NCBI GenBank assembly: GCA_900696495.1
Contig: CAADGI010000021.1
Coordinates: 43,614 to 107,613 of the forward strand
Length of the DNA stretch: 64,000 nucleotides
Direction: 5' to 3'
Origin: an uncultured Alphaproteobacteria bacterium
Lineage (GTDB): Bacteria > Pseudomonadota > Alphaproteobacteria > Micavibrionales > Micavibrionaceae
This document shows positions 2,466 to 10,505 of this stretch, in pieces. The notes beneath the pieces are model-generated. The model saw only the letters and a list, made by a program, of their open reading frames with translations. It was not told the DNA's origin and made no database searches. The position numbers and the translations under genes are program-made. The first letter of the stretch is position 1; each line of letters begins with the position of its first letter.

Positions 2466-2474
2466 CCCCACGAC

Positions 2475-2630
2475 GTCATCCCGGCGCAAGCCGGGATCCA
2501 TTAAAATAATTTACCACAGCGATCACAGCGAATGCACAGGAGCCTGATACTCGAAACACGCTGTGATTTCGTCTGTGGCCGCTGTGGTAAATAAAATGGA
2601 TTGCTTCGTCGCTGCGCTCCTCGCAATGAC
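2475..2630. repeat. composite palindromic repeat element between convergent holA and parB
   Basis: Left end GTCATCCCGGCGCAAGCCGGGATCCA (itself a hairpin). Nested inverted repeats TTTACCACAGCG / CGCTGTGGTAAA. Right end TGGATTGCTTCGTCGCTGCGCTCCTCGCAATGAC. Confidence 0.8.
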
Positions 2631-3723: not shown

Positions 3724-5136
3724 TTACGCCACTTGCGCTGAATCGTCGGCACCTTCATTGGCGGCGGCGATGCTGCGCTCGCGCAAAATCACTTCCTTCG
3801 CCAGCTTGATATAGGCCTGCGCCCCCGCGCATTTCATGTCGTAAACGATCGCGGGCAATCCGAACGACGGCGCTTCCGAAAGCCGGACGTTGCGCGGAAT
3901 GACCGTCTTGTAAACCTTGTCGCCGAAATGGCCGCGTACATCTTCCTCGACCTGCGCCGACAATTTATTTCTGAGGTCGAACATCGTGAGAATGATGCCG
4001 TGAATATCCAGGCCGGGATTGAACGATTTCTGCACGCGCTCGATCGTCTTTACAAGATGGCTCAATCCTTCCAGCGCATAAAACTCGCATTGCAGCGGCA
4101 CCAGGATCGAATCCGCCGCCACCAGCGCATTCAGCGTCAGGAGATTGAGCGACGGCGGGCAGTCGATAATCACATAGTCATAGGGCAGCGGGCGGTGCAG
4201 CGCTTTTTTCAATCTGAATTCGCGGTTGTCGGCGGTGACCAGTTCGATCTCCGCGCCCGACAAATGAATCGATGACGGGATGACCGACAAATTCGGAACG
4301 CGCGTGGTGACGGCGGCCTCGACCATGTCCGCGCCTTCGAACAGCACGTCATATACACTCGTGCGGATCGCGCTGCGGCGGATGCCGAGGCCCGTGCTCG
4401 CATTGCCCTGCGGATCCATGTCGATGATCGCGACGCTTTTGCCGATCGCCGCCAGCGCTGTCGCCAGGTTCACGGCCGTCGTCGTTTTGCCGACGCCGCC
4501 TTTCTGGTTGCAGATGCCGATCAGGCGCGGGCGCTGCTGCGCTCCCGTTTTTTCCGTCGGCGTTTTTCCGGTCAGCGGTTTCTTCGTATAGGTCTTCTGT
4601 CCCGCACCTGCCGCGCCCGTCTTCATCGACAGCGGCGCATCCTGTTTCGCTTCGGCGCGGAAAGTCTCTTCACCCTGCCCCGATGCTTCTTGCTTCGCGA
4701 GTCCTTGTCTTCCCCGCGAGGCGTCCGCTGAAACCCCTTGCCCCGCACGCTCTTCTTGCCTTCCCCGCTCCTCCTCTTGTCTTTCCCGTGCCTCCTCTTG
4801 TCTTCCCCGCGCAGGCGGGGATCCGGCATCTTCTTGTCTCGCGAACCCCTCTTGCTTTCCCCGCACAAACGGGGACCTTAAAACCTCATCCCGGTCCGAA
4901 CCCTCATACATCATCCGCTCCCGCGCGGCCTGGTCGAACGCCGTATTATCAACCTGCCCCTCCAAACCTCTCGCACTCGAAGCACCCTGGGAAGCACCCT
5001 CGGGAGCGCCCTGAGAAGCAGCAACCCCGCCCTCCACATACAATTTTCCATATTGTCCGTCATCCGGATTCCGGCTTTTCTCTGCTTTCGAAAGAAATTC
5101 TTTGAAGGAATATTTTTGAACTGGCTGGTCGCTCAT
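3724..5136 (-). CDS. parA: chromosome partitioning ATPase ParA with a long low-complexity N-terminal extension (start uncertain)
   Basis: C-terminal ~265 aa is canonical ParA/Soj (ICNQKGGVGKTTTAVNLA). MSDQ start at 5136 has GGGGAAG upstream. Alternative starts are 5187 and 4626 (MKTG), the last giving a normal-length ParA. Confidence 0.8.
   Translation of the reverse strand: MSDQPVQKYSFKEFLSKAEKSRNPDDGQYGKLYVEGGVAASQGAPEGASQGASSARGLEGQVDNTAFDQAARERMMYEGSDRDEVLRSPFVRGKQEGFARQEDAGSPPARGRQEEARERQEEERGRQEERAGQGVSADASRGRQGLAKQEASGQGEETFRAEAKQDAPLSMKTGAAGAGQKTYTKKPLTGKTPTEKTGAQQRPRLIGICNQKGGVGKTTTAVNLATALAAIGKSVAIIDMDPQGNASTGLGIRRSAIRTSVYDVLFEGADMVEAAVTTRVPNLSVIPSSIHLSGAEIELVTADNREFRLKKALHRPLPYDYVIIDCPPSLNLLTLNALVAADSILVPLQCEFYALEGLSHLVKTIERVQKSFNPGLDIHGIILTMFDLRNKLSAQVEEDVRGHFGDKVYKTVIPRNVRLSEAPSFGLPAIVYDMKCAGAQAYIKLAKEVILRERSIAAANEGADDSAQVA
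4800..4826. repeat. hairpin repeat unit GTCTTCCCCGCGCAGGCGGGGATCCGG inside the parA 5' extension
   Basis: Matches 9423-9449 at 23 of 27 positions and resembles 2475-2500. Degenerate CTCTTGTCTTCCCCG copies lie around it across 4680-4880. Confidence 0.65.
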
Positions 5137-5229: not shown

Positions 5230-5862
5230 CTAACCGCGGCGGGAAATTTCTAAAATCTTTGCGCCCTCTTCCGTCCGGCTCGGAAAATCCGCGTATTCGA
5301 AACTGAATTTCTTCCGCGCCTCCTCCACTTCCTCCAGCGCCATCCGGCCCTTTAAAAGCAGCAGCGGAACCCCCGGAATAGGCTGGGTCATCTCCAGAAT
5401 TTCGACCAGCGGCGCGAACGCCCGGGCGGTAATAATGTCCGGCCCGATAGACGCCAGAGCATTCTCCGCCCGGTCGTTATGAACCCGGACGACCGACTTT
5501 GTTTCACGTGAAACATTTTTCAGGAACTCGGATTTCCTCAAATCCGATTCGACCAGGTGCATTTCCAGATCGGGCCGCATAATCGCAAGAACCAGCCCCG
5601 GGAACCCGCCCCCGCTTCCCAGATCGGCGACTTTTGCGTTCCGGGGAATACGCTCCGCCAGTTGCGCCGAATCGGCGAAATGCCGCGCCCAGATATCGTC
5701 CAAAGTCCTGGGACTGACGATATTGATTGCCTTCTGCCATTTCACCAGAAGATCATGATAAGCCTGCAAACGCGAAATTGTTTCACGTGAAACACCGAAC
5801 GCCTTGGCGAATTCCTCAGGCGACATTTTTCTTCGGCTGGGCTCTTTTGCCCTTTTTGACAT
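5230..5862 (-). CDS. rsmG: 16S rRNA (guanine527-N7)-methyltransferase RsmG (GidB)
   Basis: SAM motif [12 protein letters not shown]-terminal VSRET..L..Y, and position between mnmG and parA. Start could be 5826 (MSPEEF). Confidence 0.85.
5500..5515. repeat. perfect 16-bp palindrome TGTTTCACGTGAAACA (copy 1, in rsmG)
   Basis: Read directly; encodes VSRET in the rsmG frame. Confidence 0.95.
5779..5794. repeat. perfect 16-bp palindrome TGTTTCACGTGAAACA (copy 2, in rsmG 5' end)
   Basis: Read directly. The 21-nt stretch GAAATTGTTTCACGTGAAACA is identical to copy 3. Confidence 0.95.
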
Positions 5863-7930
5863 GCTTCAGAAGCGCGACCATGGCCGCCGGGGTCACGCCG
5901 GGAATACGCGACGCCGCACCCAAAGTCGCCGGTTGCGCCTGCTGGAGTTTTTGACGGATCTCGTTGGAAAGGCTCCCCACCGCCCCGTAATCCAGATCTT
6001 CCGGAAGCTCCAAGGCCTCATCTTTCCTGAAGGCGATAATATCCGAATCGTGCCGTTCCATATATCCCGAATATAGCGCGTCATATTCCATCTGCTCCCG
6101 GATTTCCGGACGGATGGAATTCAGCTCCGGCCAGACCCCGGAGAGCTGGTCCCAGTCGATATCCGGGTAACCCAAAAGCGCCCCGGCCGAGCGGCGGACC
6201 CCATCTTTATTGACCCCGATCCCATAGTTTTCAAGTTCGTTGGGCGTGGCCCGCAAACCCGCCATAAGCGCCCGCGCCCGCTCCAACGCCTCCGACTTTT
6301 TACCCCAGGCGGCGACCCGGCCGGAACCGACAAACCCGGCCTCGATTCCCCTGCCCGTCAGGCGCTGGTCGGCATTGTCGGCCCGGAGCCGGAGACGGTA
6401 TTCCGCCCGGCTGGTGAACATCCGGTACGGCTCCGGCGCGCCCCTGGTAATAAGGTCGTCGACCAGAACCCCGATATAGGCCTCGGCCCGGTCCAGCGTG
6501 AACGGCGAAATTGTTTCACGTGAAACATCCGACCCCGCCCCGGCCGATTGGCGGGCGGCGTTAAGGCCGGCCATCAACCCCTGGGCGGCAGCCTCCTCAT
6601 ACCCCGTGGTCCCATTGATCTGGCCCGCCAGAAACAGCCCCGGCAACCGGCGGCTTTCCAAAGTCGGCCTCAGGTCGCGCGGATCGCAATAGTCATATTC
6701 AATAGCATATGCCCATTCCCTAATATTTACATATTCCAAACCGGGAATGGTCCGTATGTATGCCTCTTGTACCTCGATGGGCAGCGACGTCGAAATCCCG
6801 TTCGGGTAGACGGTATCATCATCCAGCCCTTCCGGCTCCAGAAAAACCTGGTGCCGCGACTTGTCGGCGAAGCGCGTCACCTTGTCCTCGATCGACGGAC
6901 AATAGCGCGGCCCCGTCCCCGAAATCTGACCGGAATACATGGCCGACCTGTGGATATTATCGCGGATAATTTTATGAGTGTTTTCGTTCGTGTAAGTGAT
7001 ATGGCAGGATATCTGCGGCACACGGATTTTATCGGTCATATAGGAAAACGGCACCGGCGGGTCGTCGCCTTTCTGCTCCTCGAGCGCCGCCCAGTTGATC
7101 GTAGAACCGTCCAGTCGGGCTGGCGTCCCGGTTTTGAGCCGCCCAAGCGGAAATCTAAATCTTTCAAGCGTTAAAGCCATACCGACAGCCGGGGCTTCCC
7201 CAACCCGACCAGCCGGAATCTTTTCCTGTCCGCGGTGGATGACACCCCTCAAAAAAGTGCCCGTTGTCAACACCACAGTCCCACATCTCATGGTACTAAT
7301 TATTTTACATAATGCTTCACCGGGGGCGGGCGGGTTAGGTTGGCCTGGGGGTGAGCCTGAGGGCGAGATAGAGGTGCGAATAGGGCTGCCAGCGCTGTGC
7401 ATAGCTGCGCCGGATTTACCCCCATCCTGTGCATAACTGCCGGGGCCCGCGGAATCGCTGGCGCTGGCACCCGGCGGCCTAGCGCCGGGGAGGGCGGTGA
7501 GAATAGCCGAAAGCCCCTGTACGCGCCCGTCCGCGCCGATCACGATATCTTCGGCGGAGCCTTCCAGAAGCGTCAGATTGGGGTAATCCGCCAGCATCGC
7601 CTGCATGGCGTTGCGGTATAATTTGCGGTCGGCCTGCGCCCGGGGGCCGCGTACGGCCGGGCCTTTCGAGGCATTCAGCATGCGGAACTGTATGCCCGCC
7701 TGGTCGATGATGCGGCCCATGACGCCGTCGAGCGCGTCGATCTCGCGCACCAGATGGCCCTTGCCAAGCCCGCCGATCGCCGGGTTGCAGGACATCGCGC
7801 CGATCGTGGCGAGCTTGTGGGTGAGGAGGGCGGTTTTCGCGCCCGCGCGCGCGGCCGCCGCCGCGGCCTCGCACCCCGCATGCCCGCCGCCCACGACAAT
7901 CACGTCAAAACTGAGCTTTTCCATGTCCAT
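5816..7930 (-). CDS. mnmG: tRNA uridine 5-carboxymethylaminomethyl modification enzyme MnmG (GidA), with an in-frame insertion
   Basis: FAD motif [22 protein letters not shown], and IEYDY. At 704 aa it is about 70-80 aa longer than the usual ~620-630 aa. Confidence 0.9.
6512..6527. repeat. perfect 16-bp palindrome TGTTTCACGTGAAACA (copy 3, in mnmG)
   Basis: Read directly; encodes VSRET within [15 protein letters not shown]. Confidence 0.95.
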
Positions 7931-8228: not shown

Positions 8229-9119
8229 ATGGGCGGCAGAAAAAAGAACCCGGACCTCAAAATAGATATGACAGAGCCTGTCGCGCTGACGGCATTCAAC
8301 CAACACTCCGCCGCGCTGAGGGAGCGCCTGGAAAATCACCGGATCTGGATTGAGAGCAACGGCCTTGCGGGAAGAAATTTCAACGGCACTGACGATAGAG
8401 TTATCGCGAGCCTCGATCTGAACGGCGTTGATTTAAGACGCATGAGGCTTGCCGGAATGGTTTTCGAAAAATGCGACTTCAGAAAAATCAGGCTGGATGA
8501 CGGAAACATCGATGACGCGGTTTTCAGGCACTGCACATTTCGTGATTTCGATGAAAGCCAGAAAAATGCAAAAATTGTCAGCATTAACCGCGTGCGCGCG
8601 AAGCGGGCCCAATTCTTTGGCTGCGACCTGCGCGGCATAAAAGTCAATGACTGCGATTTAGAAGCGGCAAGAATAACAGACTGCCAGTACAACAAGGAGC
8701 AATTCAAATTTTCCTACATCGTCGGCATGCGTGCCGACGGCGTTACCCTGAAGGAAGCGGCGCCTGACAATCTTATGCTTGGCTATAGCGCAAAGCCGGA
8801 ATATCCGTCACTGACCCCGGATAAAAAACTGGTGACGCTTGATTATAAGGGGCGCGGCAACTGCGGGTCCGTATCCGCGGGCCCCGACCATGAACAGCTC
8901 TGCGACATTTCTGCCGAAAAAGCGGCCCCCGAAAAGAAAACCCGCAAAAGCCGTACGCCTCGTGCGGCAGATCCTCTTGCAATGCCTGAAGAAGGCCGCC
9001 GGGCGACGCTCGAACTCGCAGACTGGGAAGATGAACAAGACGTAAGTGAAATCGTAAGCCGTGGACCTCGCCGTGAAGAAGAATTCGGCGATCAGGGTAT
9101 ATCGCTTACGCTGGAATAA
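8229..9119 (+). CDS. pentapeptide-repeat protein (296 aa)
   Basis: GAGGAG RBS at 8217-8222. Central run of A(D/N)LXX-type repeats (LNGVDLRRMRLAGMVFEKCDFRKIRLDDGNIDDAVFRHCTFRDF...). Visibly AT-richer than its neighbours. Confidence 0.7.
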   Translation: MGGRKKNPDLKIDMTEPVALTAFNQHSAALRERLENHRIWIESNGLAGRNFNGTDDRVIASLDLNGVDLRRMRLAGMVFEKCDFRKIRLDDGNIDDAVFRHCTFRDFDESQKNAKIVSINRVRAKRAQFFGCDLRGIKVNDCDLEAARITDCQYNKEQFKFSYIVGMRADGVTLKEAAPDNLMLGYSAKPEYPSLTPDKKLVTLDYKGRGNCGSVSAGPDHEQLCDISAEKAAPEKKTRKSRTPRAADPLAMPEEGRRATLELADWEDEQDVSEIVSRGPRREEEFGDQGISLTLE

Positions 9120-9125
9120 ACGTCG

Positions 9126-10505
9126 TCATTTCCCGATACAGAAATCCTTGAAAATGACGTCGAGCAGATCCTCGACATCGACGCGGCCCGTGATGCGCCC
9201 GACCGCGCGCACCGCAAGGCGAACGTCCTCGGCAGCCAGCTCGGGCAGCGCGGCGGTCTTTGCCCGCATGAGCGAGGCCAGCGCGTCTTCCAGCGCGGCG
9301 CGGTGACGCGCGCGGGTGAGAGACGGCGTCTCACCGGGCTTCAGCAGATTTTGAATTTTTACTGTCAAAGAAGAAACAAGCGTATCAAGATTTATTTCGT
9401 CTTGAACGGAAACATATAAAATGTCATGCCCGCGCAGGCGGACATCCGGTTCTTCTTTTTTTGCCGGACCCCCGCCTGCGCGGGGGCGACGTGTGACCAG
9501 GTCTGATTTATTGACGACGATCAAAGAATTTTCATCGGCGAGTTTGAGCGTCGCGTCGTCGAAATTTTTCGCCGTGCCGTCGAACAGCAGGATTTTGATA
9601 TCGGCCTCGCGCGCGCGGGATAACGCGCGGCGTATGCCTTCCGACTCGATTTTATCGTGACCTTTTTCATTGAGCTGCGCCGGGCGGAGGCCAGCCGTGT
9701 CGGCGAGAACGACGGGATATCCCGCAATATCGAGATGCGCCTCGATCACATCGCGCGTCGTGCCGGCAACGTCTGAGACGATCGCGATGTCGCGCTGCGC
9801 CAGCGCATTGACCAAAGAAGATTTCCCCGCATTCGGCGCGCCGATCACCGCGACATGCACGCCGCCGCGCAATCTCTCGCCGCGCCGGTTGTCGTTCAGG
9901 TGCGCGGAAATTTCCGACGCAATTTGTTCGATGGCGGGCGACGCGCGCAGGGCGATGCCGCCGGGCAAATCGTCATCGGGAAATTCAATTTCCGCCTCAA
10001 GATGCGCGAGAAGTTTTTTGAGTTCGTCCGTCCAGCGCGCATACAAACGCGAAAGCGAACCTTCCATTTGCGCCAGCGCCTGGATTTTCTGCGCGGACGT
10101 TTCGGCGTTGATGAGGTCGGCAACCGCCTCGGCCTCGGTCAGATCCATCTTGCCGTTTTCGAACGCGCGGCGCGTGAATTCGCCGGGCTCCGCGAGGCGG
10201 TGGTTTTTTTGACCGCCCAGCGCCGCGACAAGTGAATCGATCACCGCCCGCCCGCCATGCACGTGATACTCGACGACATCCTCGCCGGTGAAACTTTCCG
10301 GGCCTCTGAACGGCAAAACGACCGCGCGGTCGATGACCGCTTTTGTTTCCGGATCGCGCAAAACGGCCAGAGAGGCCGTACGCGCTACGAATTCTTTTCC
10401 GCTCAATGCTTTAAGTCCAGACCAGGCGTCCTTCCCGGAGACCCTTACAACGGCAATTCCAGACCGCCCGGTCGGTGTCGAAAGCGCGAAAATCGTCTCA
10501 CTCAC
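9126..10505 (-). CDS. mnmE: tRNA modification GTPase MnmE (TrmE)
   Basis: G-domain GAPNAGKSSL and DTAG, NKSDL, and the C-terminal FCIGK signature. Confidence 0.9.
   Translation of the reverse strand: MSETIFALSTPTGRSGIAVVRVSGKDAWSGLKALSGKEFVARTASLAVLRDPETKAVIDRAVVLPFRGPESFTGEDVVEYHVHGGRAVIDSLVAALGGQKNHRLAEPGEFTRRAFENGKMDLTEAEAVADLINAETSAQKIQALAQMEGSLSRLYARWTDELKKLLAHLEAEIEFPDDDLPGGIALRASPAIEQIASEISAHLNDNRRGERLRGGVHVAVIGAPNAGKSSLVNALAQRDIAIVSDVAGTTRDVIEAHLDIAGYPVVLADTAGLRPAQLNEKGHDKIESEGIRRALSRAREADIKILLFDGTAKNFDDATLKLADENSLIVVNKSDLVTRRPRAGGGPAKKEEPDVRLRGHDILYVSVQDEINLDTLVSSLTVKIQNLLKPGETPSLTRARHRAALEDALASLMRAKTAALPELAAEDVRLAVRAVGRITGRVDVEDLLDVIFKDFCIGK
9423..9497. repeat. 75-bp palindromic repeat element inserted in frame in mnmE
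   Basis: Arms GTCATGCCCGCGCAGGCGGACATCCGG and CCGGACCCCCGCCTGCGCGGGGGCGACGTGTGAC, of the same family as 2475-2500 and 4800-4826. Encodes VTRRPRAGGGPAKKEEPDVRLRGHD. Confidence 0.7.

Follow-up and report, generated by a model that had tools for sequence, protein, structure and literature searches.

How does the gene for a tRNA modification GTPase come to carry 75 nucleotides of palindromic repeat within its reading frame and remain open? The question is raised by mnmE in a 64,000-nucleotide stretch (the window; positions 43614-107613 of contig C21) from the assembly GCA_900696495.1, which comprises 2.04 Mb in 25 contigs at 55.6% GC and whose closest relatives are metagenome-assembled Micavibrio-like alphaproteobacterial genomes. 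Below, the host genome is labelled G000, four species of the same genus are labelled G001-G004, and L numbers denote individual loci. A sequence-only reading of the window had singled out positions 9423-9497 as a palindromic element inserted in frame into mnmE. The segment is best explained, with a probability of roughly 85%, as a slightly decayed, species-specific dimer of the CGTC-1 type of repetitive extragenic palindromic (REP) sequences, translated as a disordered loop of MnmE, tolerated as selfish DNA, and probably spread by a nuclease of the Ssn (single-strand-specific nuclease) type. In outline, a small, non-coding selfish REP dimer would have entered mnmE after the species split, and this copy, being free of stops and adjusted in length to a multiple of three, would be translated as a 25-residue disordered loop with the gene left intact. 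The features concerned are as follows:

9126-10505, minus strand: mnmE (tRNA modification GTPase), 459 aa, open frame unbroken, carries the repeat
9423-9497, unstranded: REP dimer of CGTC-1 type, tags outward, residues V337-D361 in the mnmE frame; nhmmer 60.8 bits, E = 2e-16
9422-9449, plus strand: unit A, with TGTC tag, stem ATGCCCGC/GCGGACAT (one C.A mismatch), loop GCAG and tail CCGG
9450-9463, unstranded: T-rich spacer of 14 nt, which reads AKKEE on the gene strand
9464-9497, minus strand: unit B, inverted, with tail CCGG, stem ACCCCCGC/GCGGGGGC and loop CTGC, followed by GACGTGTGAC

The letters quoted for 9423-9497 in the sequence-only reading are correct throughout, and its two inverted arms, each itself a hairpin, are borne out by the unit layout and by arm complementarity: 9429-9449 and 9464-9484 are inverted arms of 21 nt each that are 86% complementary. 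The transcript strand has a folding energy of -50 kcal/mol (z = -6.2), and none of 200 shuffles folds as well. Dimers of the family end in inverted TGTCA...TGACA and are typically flanked by TT...AA; a canonical dimer with a 14-nt spacer would measure 68 nt, compared with 75 nt for the mnmE copy, i.e., 6-7 bases extra. At the outer end of unit B, which can be placed at 9491 or 9497, GACGTGTGAC stands in place of the GACA of the family consensus. With these extra bases at one end the length is a multiple of three, so that the reading frame of mnmE is kept; the 75 nt are exactly 25 codons, as had been claimed, and read VTRRPRAGGGPAKKEEPDVRLRGHD without a stop. The AKK of the spacer was also considered as a remnant of the native loop, which has AKK in the same-genus species; this was rejected because T/A-rich spacers are typical of the family, usually 6-17 nt long and A/T-rich.

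The element belongs to a dispersed family. If a unit is defined structurally as GTC followed by a perfectly paired 8-bp stem with a 4-nt loop, the host genome contains 140 units and its reversed control 4; together with the roughly 60 loci of the mnmE-copy sub-family located by blastn and nhmmer, this excludes chance. The 140 units make up 99 loci (62 singles and 37 dimers), with tags facing outward in 37 of the 37 dimers. Of the 140, 81 units have T ahead of the GTC and 55 have C; among the tails CCAT leads (54 units), followed by CCGG (34), the loops are GAAA, GAAG and GCAG, and the stems are ATGCCCGC, ACCCCCGC and ATCCCGGC, the last being the commonest genome-wide (31 units). The family consensus unit is TGTCATGCCCGCGCAGGCGGGCATCCGG. 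Unit A differs from the commonest genomic unit, GTCATGCCCGCGCAGGCGGGCATCCGG, at one of 27 positions; at up to 3 mismatches, its master sequence has 28 copies in G000 and 3-15 in G001-G004, is rare elsewhere in the bacterial family, and is found zero times in the reversed control of every genome. A scan of the window against Rfam at gathering thresholds gave no match. Two further units lie in the window, found with nhmmer or by means of the SRM (Ssn-related motif) that is given below:

4799-4826, plus strand: single unit of the same repeat class in the N-terminal extension of the parA frame, reading QEDAGSPPARGRQ (SRM motif and nhmmer)
2474-2501, plus strand: unit of a sister sub-family in an intergenic spacer, with stem ATCCCGGC (SRM motif)

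Both had been noticed from the letters alone. The match of the left arm to 4800-4826 (GTCTTCCCCGCGCAGGCGGGGATCCGG) at 23 of 27 positions is accurate, and the resemblance to an intergenic unit at 2475-2500 holds, as CGTCATCCCGGCGCAAGCCGGGATCCAT at 2474-2501 is a unit. A genome without further copies, which would have refuted that reading, is excluded by their abundance in the genome-wide search.

CGTC-tagged REPs were defined by Di Nocera, De Gregorio and Rocco (2013, BMC Genomics 14:522; PMC3733652). In that study, a CGTC-1 unit is tagged by CGTC or TGTC, its 8-bp stem opens with AT, its loop measures 4 nt and its tail resembles CCA, and such units occur mostly as dimers with the tags outside; CGTC REPs are without a dedicated transposase, and CGTC-1, which is equated with Neisseria dRS3 and Rickettsia RPE-6, is present in Micavibrio aeruginosavorus (PMC3733652). 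Unit A has the terminal tag (TGTC at 9422-9425), the 8-bp stem (ATGCCCGC/GCGGACAT, one mismatch) and the 4-nt loop (GCAG); stems in this genome begin with AT or AC, and the family is dispersed, multicopy and, where dimeric, always arranged with tags outward. An alphaproteobacterial host without a RAYT transposase is a further likeness. The mnmE copy differs from the published family in its tail (CCGG rather than CCA), in joining two different stems (ATGCCCGC and ACCCCCGC), in being slightly decayed and shifted in length by 6-7 nt, and in its host gene and species, which are new. Intragenic dimers are part of the published picture: they encode 20-30 residues and are found in several GC-rich species, and the table of intragenic REPs includes a CGTC-1 dimer of 22 residues, SIPAKAGIQTGPSMDSRLRGNA, in PolA of M. 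aeruginosavorus (MICA_2230) (PMC3733652). This type of event is thus already in print for the Micavibrio lineage; mnmE is absent from the table. The sequence-only reading had stressed the occurrence in a high-GC genome, but 55.6% is only moderately high, and with GC-rich hosts already published this point is not novel.

The same reading had compared the element with Rickettsia palindromic elements (RPE; Ogata et al., 2000, as cited in PMC3733652). The comparison is closer than analogy, because the unit fits CGTC-1, which PMC3733652 equates with RPE-6; the equation is taken from the statement in that paper, not from a comparison of Rickettsia sequences. Both are palindromic repeats in frame in housekeeping genes, translated as an extra loop with the gene left intact, and this behaviour is real here, as it extends from mnmE to at least 12 other Pfam-confirmed genes. 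The hosts are unlike: one is predatory and free-living at 55.6% GC, whereas Rickettsia is AT-rich and obligately intracellular. Classic RPE-1 is also longer, about 100-150 nt. A second system, REPIN/RAYT (Bertels and Rainey, 2011; PMC3116915), shares the inverted REP doublet that forms a larger hairpin and the cognate enzyme gene flanked by the same repeats. It uses a GTAG tag and a Y1 (HUH) transposase, neither of which is present here: a Y1_Tnp/RAYT (PF01797) profile search of G000 and the four same-genus species gave no match, and the tag is TGTC/CGTC. The REPIN/RAYT model was therefore dropped.

The identity of the interrupted gene is secure. Its product has the Pfam domains TrmE_N, MMR_HSR1 and MnmE_helical, its top matches among solved structures are the MnmE entries 9hip, 3geh and 1xzp, a Foldseek comparison of its predicted structure agrees with the MnmE fold, and all invariant MnmE residues are kept in the alignment. 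No second mnmE was found in the host genome, so the gene is single-copy. Its earlier description as an essential GTPase gene is right as to the GTPase; MnmE is dispensable in some bacteria, and essentiality does not hold as a general rule.

That the 25-residue segment is peculiar to G000 is clear from the alignment of MnmE orthologues that the sequence-only reading had proposed. Among 19 relatives, the same-genus species (70-83% identical) read NKSD-AGAKKNPSAHMET-VLISAQ, whereas the window reads NKSD-L-VTRRPRAGGGPAKKEEPDVRLRGHD-ILYVSVQ, and the insert is absent from mnmE in all four of G001-G004. From this distribution, the insert appears to have entered mnmE after the host species split from its sequenced same-genus relatives. 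The span from NKxD to PSLTR, followed in 100 mnmE genes of the order, is 38-49 residues in all but seven; in G000 it is 58. The native 13-residue loop is gone in G000, so that, net, MnmE has gained 14 residues on its same-genus counterparts and not 25. The location given earlier, between NKSDL and the C-terminal part of the G domain, is correct; the clean addition of 25 residues is not, and the event is a loop replacement beside a diverged tract. A region-restricted search of 5.8 billion proteins returned only the host's own protein and no other MnmE with the insert, or with the insert and the tract.

In the protein, the insert occupies a variable and probably surface-exposed loop that leads from NKSD, the G4 motif (residues 332-335), to the strand beta6/G5 (S366). 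An AlphaFold model built from a 64-sequence alignment has a mean predicted local distance difference test score (pLDDT) of 82.8; in this model V337-D361 is placed between strand 327-332, which ends in NKSD, and strand 362-364, and pLDDT falls below 50 at residues 340-347. Such low confidence is as expected for a disordered loop; the structure modelling proposed in the sequence-only reading thus shows the insert as a low-confidence connection between two strands. From known structures of MnmE G domains, we take the G4-G5 loop to be located on the side of the guanine base, at a distance from the dimerising switch regions. MnmE with its insert is presumably made and active, and the insert itself is probably a neutral passenger rather than a functional module.

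If no RAYT transposase is present, what could have spread the repeat? A search for pairs of units with tags outward and long spacers led to the following locus:

C14:268047-268337 (locus C14:267955-268371): GIY-YIG gene, intact, 97 aa; PF01541, E = 6e-17

A unit lies 12 nt beyond one end of this gene, and 31/70 nt separate the other end from a dimer; these repeats are of the ATGCCCGC/ACCCCCGC sub-family, as in mnmE. Four more GIY-YIG copies (C14:283497, C23:60948, C13:48153 and C14:243821) have stops or a frameshift, or are without flanking units; where units flank them, these belong to other sub-families. Among relatives, 9 of 27 homologous GIY-YIG genes are bordered at each end by units no more than about 30 nt away, tags outward, and the units around these ssn genes are each genome's own, their stems differing between genomes. 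The Ssn family comprises single-strand-specific nucleases that cut beside a cognate hairpin; the cognate repeats are called NTS in Neisseria and Ssn-related motifs (SRM) generally (Chenal et al., 2025, Nat Commun 16:2388; PMC11893778). The SRM motif, HGTCWYN(0-2)YYVSBRHN(0-5)WNVSBRGN(0-2)RNCYNB, has 138 matches in the host genome and 13 in the control. CGTC-type hairpins native to the genome on both sides of a roughly 95-aa GIY-YIG gene, a family consensus that fits the SRM motif, and Neisseria NTS/dRS3 repeats of the same class all connect the two systems, and the pairing of nuclease and repeat in G000 is, as a kind, already published. Since the only intact repeat-flanked copy has the mnmE sub-family on both sides, the resident Ssn-type GIY-YIG nuclease, rather than a RAYT transposase, is the likely spreading agent, and Ssn would be what moves the repeat. 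The work of Chenal et al. (2025) differs in its topic, which is single-stranded DNA cleavage and transformation in Neisseria and not in-frame copies. The mnmE copy differs too, as it falls outside the SRM motif. Natural transformation is not known for Micavibrio-like bacteria. The surrounding region, C14:267600-269760, is itself dense in repeats: beside the Ssn gene, REP dimers bracket a 420-aa gene, which we take, from its translation alone, to be argininosuccinate synthase.

The mnmE copy has counterparts elsewhere in the genome. Including mnmE, at least 13 Pfam-confirmed genes carry in-frame copies; the others include ArgC, an ELM1-family protein, a MidA-like methyltransferase, a DinG-like helicase, AnmK, Dxs, a YgfZ-like protein, LeuRS, DusA, TruB, CobT and the ParA N-terminal extension. 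The ArgC copy interrupts the dimerisation domain and is absent from all four same-genus species. In Dxs, a dimer (C20:13999-14082) lies between the transketolase pyrimidine-binding and C-terminal domains, and decayed forms of it occur in five of the five genus species; being common to all of them, it is an old, retained insertion. Repeats also form the C-terminal tails of one HAD hydrolase and one Rrf2 regulator. A second type of in-frame insert, rich in P, G and E (LPLPEGEGDPSDKRGSGEG, HRGEGRGEGG and PLREREGPAKQEGEGQ), was seen in the DusA (C23:212012), AnmK (C5:139913) and LeuRS (C21:42658) regions, and resembles a translated copy of a different repeat family.

At several in-frame sites, occupancy by repeats differs between genomes. 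In other genera, the mnmE genes at L030, L032, L041 and L047 have a different palindrome, TGTCATCCTGAAGG...CTCAGGATGACA (peptide CHPEGAxRLKD...FAQDD), at exactly the same place, immediately after NKxD and immediately before I-x-x-I-S. The REP family of this palindrome has 11-47 copies in the respective genomes and none in G000. In a quick MnmE tree, the four palindrome-bearing genes fall in three places, L041 and L047 forming one clade, with empty-site relatives adjacent. In TruB, G000 (C23:223865-223966) and G004 (L155) have different repeat families at one codon, whereas the sites in G001-G003 are empty, and derived flanking states (EII ... TSFR) are common to G000 and G004. The ELM1-like site varies in occupancy within the genus. 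This same-site occupancy could be explained by there being few permissive sites, by occupied sites that attract repeats, or by recombining repeat-bearing alleles. A further DNA-level element is found in the mnmE loop as well. In other Micavibrionales (loci L021-L100), 47 of 100 mnmE genes have parS-like sites (at most 1 mismatch) inside the coding sequence, mostly at codon ~53, where they read VSRET; in nine genes one lies in the G4-G5 loop (FHVKQ), and several genes have one about 36 codons on (VSRET).

Several observations weigh against the proposed entry of a selfish REP dimer moved by Ssn. The spread of repeats by an insertion sequence-like unit of repeat, gene and repeat is a hypothesis only in Chenal et al. 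(2025; PMC11893778). Neither unit of the mnmE copy matches the SRM motif, owing to a stem change of G to A and to the changed tag of unit B; the copy thus looks decayed and might have ceased to be a nuclease substrate. Set against the hallmarks of a MITE, which are terminal inverted repeats with a target-site duplication, the family shows inverted ends, and no such duplication can be seen at the mnmE or the ArgC copy. The insertion in mnmE is also not clean: the native loop is lost, and the repeat adjoins a tract of unusual composition:

9340-9422, minus strand: AT-rich, strongly diverged tract of mnmE, 83 nt, adjoining unit A; encodes ILYVSVQDEINLDTLVSSLTVKIQNLL (beta6, the G5 region and the next helix)

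Simple transposition leaves this unexplained. The tract has 27-33% GC, compared with 56-76% in the same-genus species, and its nucleotide identity to them is 33-56%, compared with 80-96% in the rest of mnmE. It still encodes the homologous strand and helix, and its synonymous changes run towards A/T. The idea that it is part of a larger mobile unit was rejected, as it is unique in the genome. The ArgC insert likewise has a one-sided diverged tract on its 3' side; no rule for in-frame copies is claimed, since mnmE and ArgC are the only clear cases of a diverged AT-rich flank and Dxs, TruB and most other copies have none.

The tract suggests recombination import with an endpoint at the repeat. 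It is accordingly possible, if doubtful, that the repeat arrived as part of a patch of ~150-200 nt, comprising the repeat and the beta6/G5 region, by homologous recombination with an AT-richer relative, or that it marks the endpoint of such an import. An old diverged allele would account for the GC content, low identity and synonymous drift of the tract better than local mutation, and the similar tract beside the ArgC insert fits as well. So do the derived TruB flanks that G000 and G004 share around different repeats while G001, the sister of G004, has an empty site, and the raised diversity of dRS3-adjacent genes in Neisseria, for which recombination at the repeats has been named as the cause (PMC11893778). 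On the other hand, no donor was found, the region search having returned the host's own protein only, the repeat is of the host's own sub-family, one mismatch from the master copy, and most other in-frame copies, Dxs and TruB among them, have no diverged tract. A related proposal, which we consider unlikely, is that intragenic REP sites are re-used by different CGTC-type families: Ssn would nick at or near a hairpin, and repair or recombination would install or swap a repeat, sometimes importing diverged DNA.

The remaining explanations are less probable still. Retention for a function, whether by an mRNA hairpin through which mnmE expression is tuned or by a protein loop with an effect on GTPase cycling or partner binding, is very unlikely: although the hairpin folds very stably (-50 kcal/mol), the open frame has persisted in a gene that is identical in several samples, and repeats occupy the same loop in other genera, the insert is recent and species-specific, its peptide is merely the translation of the repeat and is predicted to be disordered, the peptides of the other genera are entirely different, and the same repeats are present in at least 12 unrelated proteins. 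An artefact of the metagenome-assembled genome might be feared, as the assembly is in 25 contigs and repeats can mislead assemblers; however, the Logan assemblies of two independent runs, SRR31091721 and SRR12262945, contain identical mnmE DNA (100% over 1380 nt), and 16 contigs are recorded with the 459-aa protein. Nor does mnmE resemble a decaying pseudogene, as the frame is intact, the invariant residues are present and it is the sole mnmE of the genome; both possibilities are extremely improbable. Finally, an ordinary lineage-specific expansion of the MnmE loop, similar to the repeat by chance, could appeal to the variation of the span across the order (38-58 residues). This reading is refuted by the family match, as unit A agrees with the master copy at 26 of 27 nt, nhmmer gives E = 2e-16, and species of the same genus with 82-83% protein identity are without the insert.

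Two side observations concern the neighbourhood of mnmE. A pentapeptide-repeat gene (296 aa, window positions 8229-9119) lies between mnmE and mnmG, convergent with mnmE, and the two independent run assemblies have it at the same position. The rsmG/mnmG region contains three perfect parS sites (TGTTTCACGTGAAACA), at 5500-5515, 5779-5794 and 6512-6527, with a chance expectation of 0.14.

As a whole, the entry of a REP dimer into mnmE is a further instance of a described behaviour and of modest interest, with mnmE as a new host gene. It adds a well-documented case, in the G domain of a GTPase, to the proteins that tolerate translated REP hairpins, and a Micavibrio-like genome in which at least 13 genes bear such repeats. 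Annotation is helped as well, because the odd 25 residues are repeat-derived and no new feature of MnmE; the G4-G5 loop is a permissive site of possible use for tag insertion. The occupancy of one codon by different repeat families and the diverged tract that abuts the repeat go beyond the published picture. If sites are indeed re-used, the repeats would be local drivers of allele replacement in essential genes and not mere passengers. How CGTC-type repeats move, and what part Ssn plays, was left open by the papers of 2013 and 2025; same-codon occupancy, one-sided tracts, and the match between the Ssn flanks and the youngest in-frame copy could provide a handle on this movement.

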